Origin: an uncultured Muribaculaceae bacterium
GTDB taxonomy: Bacteria; Bacillota_I; Bacilli_A; RF39; UBA660
Direction: 5' to 3'
Assembly (NCBI GenBank): GCA_964513345.1
Contig: CAZELY010000006.1
Span: forward strand, 1 to 49,027
DNA: 49,027 nucleotides
Below, one piece after another: positions 1 through 49,027 of this stretch. The first letter of the stretch is position 1; each line of letters begins with the position of its first letter. The translations under genes were made by a program, and so were the position numbers. Below the pieces are notes generated by a model. That model worked only from the letters and a program-made list of their open reading frames with translations. It was not told the DNA's origin and did no database searches.

Positions 1-60
1 ACTCGAACCTACGACCTGTCGGTTAACAGCCGAATGCTCTACCAACTGAGCTAATTGAGC
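1..60 (-). tRNA. tRNA-Asn(GTT), 3' end truncated by window edge
   Basis: Reverse complement GCTCAATTAGCTCAGTTGGTAGAGCATTCGGCTGTTAACCGACAGGTCGTAGGTTCGAGT has a D arm, anticodon loop CT-GTT-AA and TTCGA T-loop. Confidence 0.95.
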
Positions 61-65
61 ATTTC

Positions 66-108
66 AATAAAAACAGCTAAACGTTCCTCGATAAGGACGA
101 ATAACTGT
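66..108 (-). terminator. T-box intrinsic terminator
   Basis: ACAGUUA-UU-CGUCCU-UAUCG-AGGAACG-UU-UAGCUGU followed by UUUUAUU, ending a few nt before tRNA-Asn. Confidence 0.85.
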
Positions 109-316
109 AATTCGCGGTGCCACCTTACTTATCACATAACATGATCACTCTATAGTTTCAATAGAAACTTATAATTAGATAACGGTTTACTTCCGATTTA
201 ACCTACTAATTTCAGCTAAATAACTCCGTGGTGTTATTCATATTTATATTATTACCAGCTTTCATCGTTCTGGCTTTCTTTAAATAAGGGATAAATATTA
301 CTTCTCCACTTCTTAG
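66..316 (-). promoter_or_regulatory. T-box riboswitch, Asn (AAC) specifier
   Basis: Stem I GTGG-AGAAGTA...GAA-T-AAC-A-CCAC (specifier 233-235). T-box GGTGGCACCGCG (113-124). Antiterminator AAGG[UGGCACC]GCGAA...UUCGU-CCUU (93-126). Mutually exclusive terminator 66-108. Confidence 0.92.
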
Positions 317-48986: not shown

Positions 48987-49027
48987 GGGTCCGTAGCCAA
49001 GTGGTAAGGCATGGGACTGCAACTCCC
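48987..49027 (+). tRNA. tRNA-Cys(GCA), truncated by window edge
   Basis: GGGTCCG-TA-GCC-AAGTGGTAA-GGC-A-TGGGA-CTGCAAC-TCCC, anticodon GCA. Confidence 0.9.

Follow-up and report, generated by a model that had tools for sequence, protein, structure and literature searches.

The stretch of DNA analyzed here (the window; 49,027 nucleotides [nt], positions 1 to 49,027 of the forward strand of GenBank contig CAZELY010000006.1, assembly GCA_964513345.1) comes from an uncultured bacterium of GTDB lineage Bacillota_I, Bacilli_A, RF39, UBA660 and forms the start of a contig (C6) in an 886-kb assembly that is 84% complete. At this contig start lies a T-box riboswitch leader with an asparagine specifier, set among tRNA genes and, like the whole locus, encoded on the minus strand. 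In the direction of transcription, the locus comprises a tRNA-Ile(GAU) gene (434 to 510; ARAGORN, with 76.6 bits for the Rfam tRNA model), a tRNA-Glu(UUC) gene (347 to 423; ARAGORN, 61.6 bits), a spacer (324 to 346), the T-box leader (90 to 323) with its intrinsic terminator (65 to 108), and the first copy of a tRNA-Asn(GUU) array (1 to 60; 45 bits for the Rfam tRNA model), which has lost its 3' end at the contig end. This tRNA-Asn reads GCUCAAUUAGCUCAGUUGGUAGAGCAUUCGGCUGUUAACCG..., with GCUCAAU as the 5' strand of the acceptor stem, CUGUUAA as the anticodon loop, and the anticodon GUU at 27-25. The initial annotation of this DNA, made from its letters, had placed a T-box within a tRNA operon after tRNA-Ile and tRNA-Glu, and the ARAGORN and Rfam positions agree with it, although the leader, which it had drawn from 1 to 316, starts at 323 and runs along the minus strand.

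The T-box leader and its position in a tRNA operon

The leader matches the Rfam T-box model (RF00230) over the full length of the model (positions 1 to 219); its score of 131 bits (E = 6e-29) exceeds the gathering score of 93 and is the highest among the nine T-boxes in this genome. The Rfam alignment places the GA/K-turn motif of Stem I at 314-304 (AAGAAGUGGAG...AGUA on the 5' side) and the AG bulge and distal loop at 281-255. The specifier loop AUGAAUAACACC (241-230) reads AUGAA-U-AAC-A-CC, and the codon at the specifier position (233 to 235) is AAC (Asn), in the context GAA-U-AAC-A, with a purine next to it. Stem II and the IIA/B region occupy 223-183 of the match and Stem III occupies 148-129. 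The T-box sequence AAGGUGGCACCGCG (126-113) lies inside the antiterminator helix (126-93; -4.9 kcal/mol), and the C of the UGGC in its bulge (119 to 122) pairs with G73 of tRNA-Asn. An Asn T-box that pairs AAC with GUU and UGGC with G73-CCA had been proposed in the initial annotation and is borne out by the alignment and by the specifier and bulge positions. The discriminator base itself is unreadable in the truncated window copy of the tRNA; however, a second copy of the gene on another contig (C19) and all relatives have G73 with an encoded CCA, together with the anticodon GUU.

The intrinsic terminator consists of a hairpin at 108-73 (ACAGUUAUUCGUCCUU paired with GAGGAACGUUUAGCUGU; -14.4 kcal/mol) and the U-tract UUUUUAUU at 72-65. 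Its 5' strand is the 3' strand of the antiterminator, which makes the two helices mutually exclusive. GAAAU (64-61) parts the U-tract from the start of tRNA-Asn at position 60, so that the distance estimated earlier at about 5 nt is exactly 5 nt.

In an alignment of 28 distinct leaders from relatives, all of the window's type, 95.8% of the cells of the outer terminator helix are paired and both partners vary in four of the seven pairs; for the antiterminator the values are 97.4% and two pairs. When the 3' partners were slid by 1 to 3 columns as a control, pairing fell to only 17 to 58%. To judge from these alignments, both switch helices are under selection. AAC occupies the specifier position in every related leader inspected (a strict pattern recognizes it in at least 96 of 112, and it was read by eye in 6 of the remaining 16), and the variable base of the bulge, C in 54 of them and U in 58, pairs with G73 in either form. 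By every criterion that can be tested on the sequence, the leader is a member of RF00230, and it is most likely a canonical transcription-attenuating T-box for Asn. Its specifier-anticodon and UGGN-NCCA pairings and its competition between antiterminator and terminator are, as sequence features, like those of other members of this RNA family such as the Bacillus subtilis tyrS and glyQS T-boxes.

One departure from the Rfam consensus is found in the distal region of Stem I, where AGAAA and GAACGAUGAAAG stand in place of AGAGA and GGUUGGUGAAA, with a 2-nt deletion, at high posterior probability in the alignment. It would fit a relic that no longer switches and is either always read through or always terminating, with tRNA-Asn produced from leak. 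We give this explanation almost no credence, as the leader is the best-scoring T-box of the genome, the codon and the base that pairs with the discriminator are kept in about 110 leaders, and both helices show compensatory changes.

The sole promoter-like site on the minus strand 5' of the T-box is TTGTAA, 17 nt, TATACT at 530 to 558, upstream of tRNA-Ile, which was found in a scan limited to sigma-70-type consensus sites and agrees with the consensus at 9 of 12 positions. It is likely to be the promoter of the whole unit of tRNA-Ile, tRNA-Glu, T-box, and tRNA-Asn. The same scan detected nothing promoter-like in the spacer that follows tRNA-Glu, nor between the U-tract and tRNA-Asn, a place at which the initial annotation had considered a promoter and where only 5 nt are available. 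The spacer between tRNA-Glu and the T-box begins AGUUUGUUAAUUAUUUUUUUUAU, in a pattern kept in about 28 loci of the same layout, and holds no consensus -35 and -10 elements at proper spacing. A TTGTTA...TATAAAT pair within it was rejected as a promoter; its spacing of 13 to 15 nt is wrong, and it is homologous to the transcribed leader in loci with a clear TTGACA-17-TATAAT farther upstream, and it was taken to be leader sequence. Where a related T-box has no tRNA genes in front of it, a textbook TTGACA-17-TATAAT promoter is present instead. The best reading is that the T-box is internal to the tRNA operon and that tRNA-Ile and tRNA-Glu, by virtue of their position alone, are outside its control, as the initial annotation had also supposed.

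The array could also have a start of its own, at a weak AT-rich promoter located at the 3' end of the leader or within the array, in which case tRNA-Asn would be made constitutively and the T-box would only modulate read-through from upstream. In favor of this, weak -10-like hexamers abound in such highly AT-rich sequence, the scan covered sigma-70-type sites only, and cells require tRNA-Asn constantly. However, the 5 nt from the U-tract to the tRNA yield no promoter-like score, the spacers within the arrays of relatives are just 3 to 11 nt long, and the 3' region of the leader is constrained by two covarying helices. We therefore regard a separate start as very unlikely.

The tRNA-Asn array and the genes downstream of it

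The end of contig C19 and the start of C6 share 46 nt, beyond which C19 continues to a tRNA-Asn 3' end, AUCAGGC-G-CCA. The AUCAGGC of this copy is unable to pair with the GCUCAAU of C6. Since the acceptor stems at the two contig ends differ, there must be at least two tandem copies of tRNA-Asn, on whose common core the assembly broke. That the two ends belong to one gene was rejected because of these acceptor stems and because only 46 nt are common, compared with an overlap of 55 nt at other contig ends. Two genomes of the same genus are collinear across the junction on single contigs, with six tRNA-Asn copies in one and one copy in the other, and relatives have between one and six tandem copies. 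The first array copy in the window's genome is of the GCUCAAU type and the last is of the GCCUGAU type, and these isodecoders differ only in compensated acceptor-stem pairs. The two isodecoders (GCUCAAU/AUUGAGC and GCCUGAU/AUCAGGC) are retained as a pair across many genera (loci L001-L027 and L028-L147).

After the last tRNA-Asn, C19 shows a strong terminator-like hairpin of 13 bp (-18.4 kcal/mol; C19 reverse strand 60-125), accompanied by six U's. The ribosome-binding site of gatC is located 12 nt past this hairpin, with no promoter space between them, and the gene order that follows is gatC (99 amino acids), gatA, gatB, and aspS (578 amino acids). NCBIfam models name the products GatC, GatA, GatB, and aspartyl-tRNA synthetase (AspRS); the matches to GatB and AspRS are over the cutoff, and those to GatA and GatC are the best matches but just under it. 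The initial annotation had taken tRNA-Asn to be the target of the T-box, and it is indeed the first gene behind the switch, but as the head of a tandem array and not as a single gene, with enzyme genes after it. A caveat raised at the same time, that an Asn-related protein gene might follow the tRNA, proved apt, with gatCAB-aspS in this genome and asnS in some relatives.

A tRNA-Asn core pattern found array copies only in 25 of 26 genomes. With a looser anticodon-arm pattern, a complete 1.5-Mb chromosome yielded four sites, all of them array copies, and eight other genomes yielded array copies only or sites at chance level. ARAGORN found no further tRNA-Asn in the window's genome, at 84% completeness. 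Because the recognizable tRNA-Asn genes all lie behind the T-box, this anatomy suggests that uncharged tRNA-Asn gates the synthesis of tRNA-Asn.

A search pattern that linked the T-box bulge to tRNA-Asn was found in 27 of the 401 genomes of the family (17 of 214 genera). Within the window's genus it is present in 11 of 14 genomes, and none of 349 genomes that represent the other families of the class has it. The initial annotation had suggested looking for such synteny in related genomes, and a global scan, with one genome per GTDB species and with all counts taken among the matches listed, extended it to at least 88 T-box and tRNA-Asn loci among 95 low-GC matches. All of these are in uncultured small-genome gut Bacilli, labeled Bacilli, Tenericutes, Mollicutes, or Erysipelotrichaceae. 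High-GC matches (Streptomyces, Kocuria, and others) were rejected as chance matches beside other tRNAs. Among the matches listed, the arrays have one to four copies, mostly two, and tRNA-Glu is directly upstream, as in the window, in 28 loci. The layout is an Asn T-box, a tRNA-Asn array, gatCAB, and then aspS or asnS, with a few loci in which asnS or aspS comes right after the array; wherever a locus extends far enough, Asn-related protein genes come after the array. At locus L016 (genome G329), two full Asn T-box leaders (132 and 128 bits) stand on either side of a single tRNA-Asn.

A parallel layout occurs in the same bacterial family for phenylalanine. In at least six related loci (L048, L053, L061, L074, L085, and L101), tRNA-Phe(GAA) comes immediately after a T-box whose specifier is UUC (Phe). 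A pheS-like gene comes next in L053, L061, and L101 (35 to 37% identity) and, as a weak match (24 to 27%), in L074 and L085; none was detected in L048. The Phe leaders score 57 to 105 bits with Rfam, and only that of L085 is over the gathering score.

Probable indirect asparaginylation and the proposed switch

The gene for asparaginyl-tRNA synthetase (AsnRS), asnS, is present in 8 of the 27 genomes with this layout, each time within this operon, and a search of three genomes of the window's genus (84%, 94%, and 95% complete) did not find it. A glnS gene was not found in any of the 27. The window's genome encodes one gatCAB and two bacterial-type AspRS paralogues with 40% identity to each other, the paralogue in the operon being the more divergent (600 versus 811 bits). 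The AspRS of the operon is presumably nondiscriminating, since the genus is without AsnRS. Most likely, Asn-tRNA-Asn is made here by the indirect route, via a nondiscriminating AspRS and GatCAB, and the unit encodes that route along with its tRNA substrate.

Two genes for AsnB-type glutamine-hydrolyzing asparagine synthetases are found elsewhere in the genome (C3:23735-25345 and C22:3297-4907). Because AsnRS is missing, free asparagine could not be loaded onto tRNA. AsnB-type homologues also amidate cell wall precursors, and the two genes may serve cell wall amidation and not translation.

In the mechanism that we propose, the polymerase would start upstream of tRNA-Ile and make tRNA-Ile and tRNA-Glu unconditionally before transcribing the leader of about 260 nt. 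Uncharged tRNA-Asn would bind the leader through AAC-GUU pairing, contact between Stem I and the tRNA elbow, and pairing of UGGC with G73-CCA, which would stabilize the weak antiterminator and permit read-through. Without uncharged tRNA-Asn, the stronger terminator and its U-tract would halt transcription 5 nt before the first tRNA-Asn. Read-through would yield the tandem array of at least two tRNA-Asn genes, and a fraction of the transcripts would pass the second hairpin into gatC-gatA-gatB-aspS. The switch would thus make the supply of the indirect pathway, with its RNA substrate, depend on how far tRNA-Asn is charged.

In T-boxes in general, charged tRNA competes for Stem I but cannot stabilize the antiterminator. 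The leader would therefore read the ratio of uncharged to charged tRNA-Asn, such that a shrinking pool or slow charging would raise read-through and a full charged pool would lower it. The initial annotation had described a feedback loop in which uncharged tRNA-Asn promotes the synthesis of more tRNA-Asn. The position of the recognizable tRNA-Asn genes behind the T-box supports such a loop; however, because T-boxes respond to the ratio, more uncharged tRNA leading to more tRNA need not become a runaway positive loop. The loop could instead raise capacity during starvation and keep the tRNA-Asn pool matched to demand. Taken as a whole, an Asn T-box in the middle of a tRNA operon that attenuates a tRNA-Asn array and gatCAB-aspS in a manner coupled to charging is, in our judgment, the probable explanation of this locus.

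Several observations weigh against that explanation. The tRNA-Asn of the window is truncated, and C6 is linked to gatCAB by overlap and synteny. The terminator-like hairpin before gatC makes it uncertain what share of the T-box decision reaches gatCAB-aspS. A weak promoter could be present in the AT-rich spacer between tRNA-Glu and the T-box, although it would leave the gating unchanged. The tRNA-Asn copies inspected all have G1-C72, whereas tRNA-Gln of the same genome has U1-A72, which is the pair that bacterial GatCAB is reported to require, with a 100-fold loss for G1-C72 (PMC1635274). In a genus without asnS, amidation of Asp by GatCAB would have to take place on a G1-C72 tRNA, contrary to this published identity rule; if it does, the accepted rule for bacteria would be revised. 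The sole GatCAB is also needed for Gln-tRNA-Gln, as GlnRS was not found. Tight control by Asn alone would be hazardous for such an enzyme, so that basal read-through or an unseen promoter must exist. With no promoter space after the hairpin before gatC and no other amidotransferase in the genome, passage of the polymerase through that hairpin would have to be substantial.

The remaining observation concerns the relatives. About half of the related leaders, termed class 2 (e.g., L014, L017, L026, L078, and L121), carry no U-tract with their short hairpin, UUCGUCCC/GGGACGAA, and they may not gate the tRNAs at all, in which case the mechanism would not be uniform across the family. In class 2, the 22 nt before the first tRNA are complementary to the 22 nt after the last (-10.45 kcal/mol, versus -6.93 kcal/mol for swapped partners), and this pairing joins the 3' strand of the leader hairpin to the 5' strand of the pre-gatC terminator. 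In class 2, the expression platform of the riboswitch may thus enclose the tRNA genes, with constitutive tRNAs and a decision made after them. A similar relay by pairing of leader and trailer across the array was considered for the window's class and rejected; its short flanks give -4.04 versus -3.31 kcal/mol for swapped partners, and long segments give -15.9 versus -14.6 (standard deviation, 3.4), which is no signal. In both classes, the cognate tRNA lies between the T-box and the charging enzymes, but the window's class (unlike, e.g., L014 and L026) has its terminator before the tRNAs.

These differences bear on whether the tRNAs are mere passengers, that is, whether the T-box evolved for gatCAB-aspS or asnS, which are targets of Asn T-boxes in other bacteria, and the regulation of the inserted tRNA-Asn genes is a tolerated and unselected side effect. 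The Asn-tRNA formation genes after the array in every sufficiently long locus would fit such an origin, as would the class 2 relatives, whose hairpin without a U-tract and complementary array flanks are consistent with constitutive tRNAs and a decision at the terminator before gatC. In the window's class, however, a covarying terminator with a U-tract directly precedes the first tRNA and the flank complementarity is missing. Furthermore, all tRNA-Asn genes of a genome are confined to this position in more than 80 species, in up to six copies, and a terminator-like hairpin between the array and gatC in most loci would make the tRNAs the main product of read-through. The hairpin and the confinement of all tRNA-Asn genes to this position argue that the tRNA is more than a passenger, and we consider a mere passenger role unlikely.

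Relation to known regulation and wider T-box content

Known T-box regulons comprise genes for aminoacyl-tRNA synthetases, amino acid biosynthesis, and transporters, with protein-coding targets only, and a 2008 survey found no T-boxes upstream of amidotransferase genes (PMC2494555). A full-text literature search, with Vitreschak 2008, Gutierrez-Preciado 2009, and Saad 2012/2013 outside its coverage, found nothing on T-boxes that precede tRNA genes. In contrast to the known cases, the first regulated genes here would be those of the ligand tRNA itself, and the leader is inside a tRNA operon and does not follow a promoter of its own.

The closest functional relative is the NT-box of Clostridium acetobutylicum, which, like the leader studied here, is an Asn-responsive T-box upstream of genes for AspRS and GatCAB. 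It reportedly controls a tRNA-dependent transamidation operon, in work by Saad et al. that appeared in J Biol Chem in 2012 and in PNAS in 2013 (cited in PMC4574755). Its specifier loop is described as unusual in that AAC and GAA overlap there and both are read, so that two tRNAs are bound. We know of no tRNA genes in that operon. In the present leader, GAA is instead the conserved loop motif of ordinary T-boxes, one base away from AAC, with no overlap.

Operons that mix tRNA and mRNA are found in other bacteria. The thrU-tyrU-glyT-thrT-tufB operon of Escherichia coli cotranscribes tRNAs with a translation-related protein gene from one promoter and is in this respect alike, but it lacks a riboswitch and a link to charging. 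Stringent and growth rate control, through ppGpp and the sensing of initiating nucleoside triphosphates, acts at initiation on all stable-RNA promoters together. Both that control and the switch proposed here tune tRNA synthesis to demand or amino acid supply, but the latter would be tRNA specific and attenuation based.

We lean, with some reserve, toward a broader interpretation for the genus. The T-box may be the sole transcriptional route to tRNA-Asn and may act as a tRNA-specific homeostat through the aminoacylation state, distinct from global stringent control. The ligand of the riboswitch would then be encoded by the very genes that it gates, and the operon would include an RNA cofactor of the enzymes that it encodes, for which the tRNA is the scaffold in making Asn; with the Phe case, the T-box regulon would be extended in a general and so far unrecognized way. 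Control by a T-box over tRNA genes, and over those of its own ligand at that, would be a new class of target after more than 20 years of cataloged regulons. It would close a direct feedback loop from the charging state of a tRNA to its synthesis and would offer a testable way for a bacterium to adjust the supply of a single tRNA species, a question for which mechanistic answers are otherwise few in bacteria. Because the first coding sequence is what annotation pipelines and T-box databases take as the downstream gene, such leaders will have been filed under gatC or asnS and the tRNAs missed.

Two further observations concern other parts of the genome. A T-box with an apparent AGC (Ser) specifier (C9:37459-37638, minus strand) precedes two paralogous open reading frames of about 180 amino acids that resemble P-loop kinases, with no obvious synthetase gene. 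The opposite contig end of the window (48987-49027, plus strand) also stops inside a tRNA, in this case one with the anticodon GCA (Cys). The same tRNA-Cys opens contig C9 with a different upstream flank, and it is therefore probably duplicated too.

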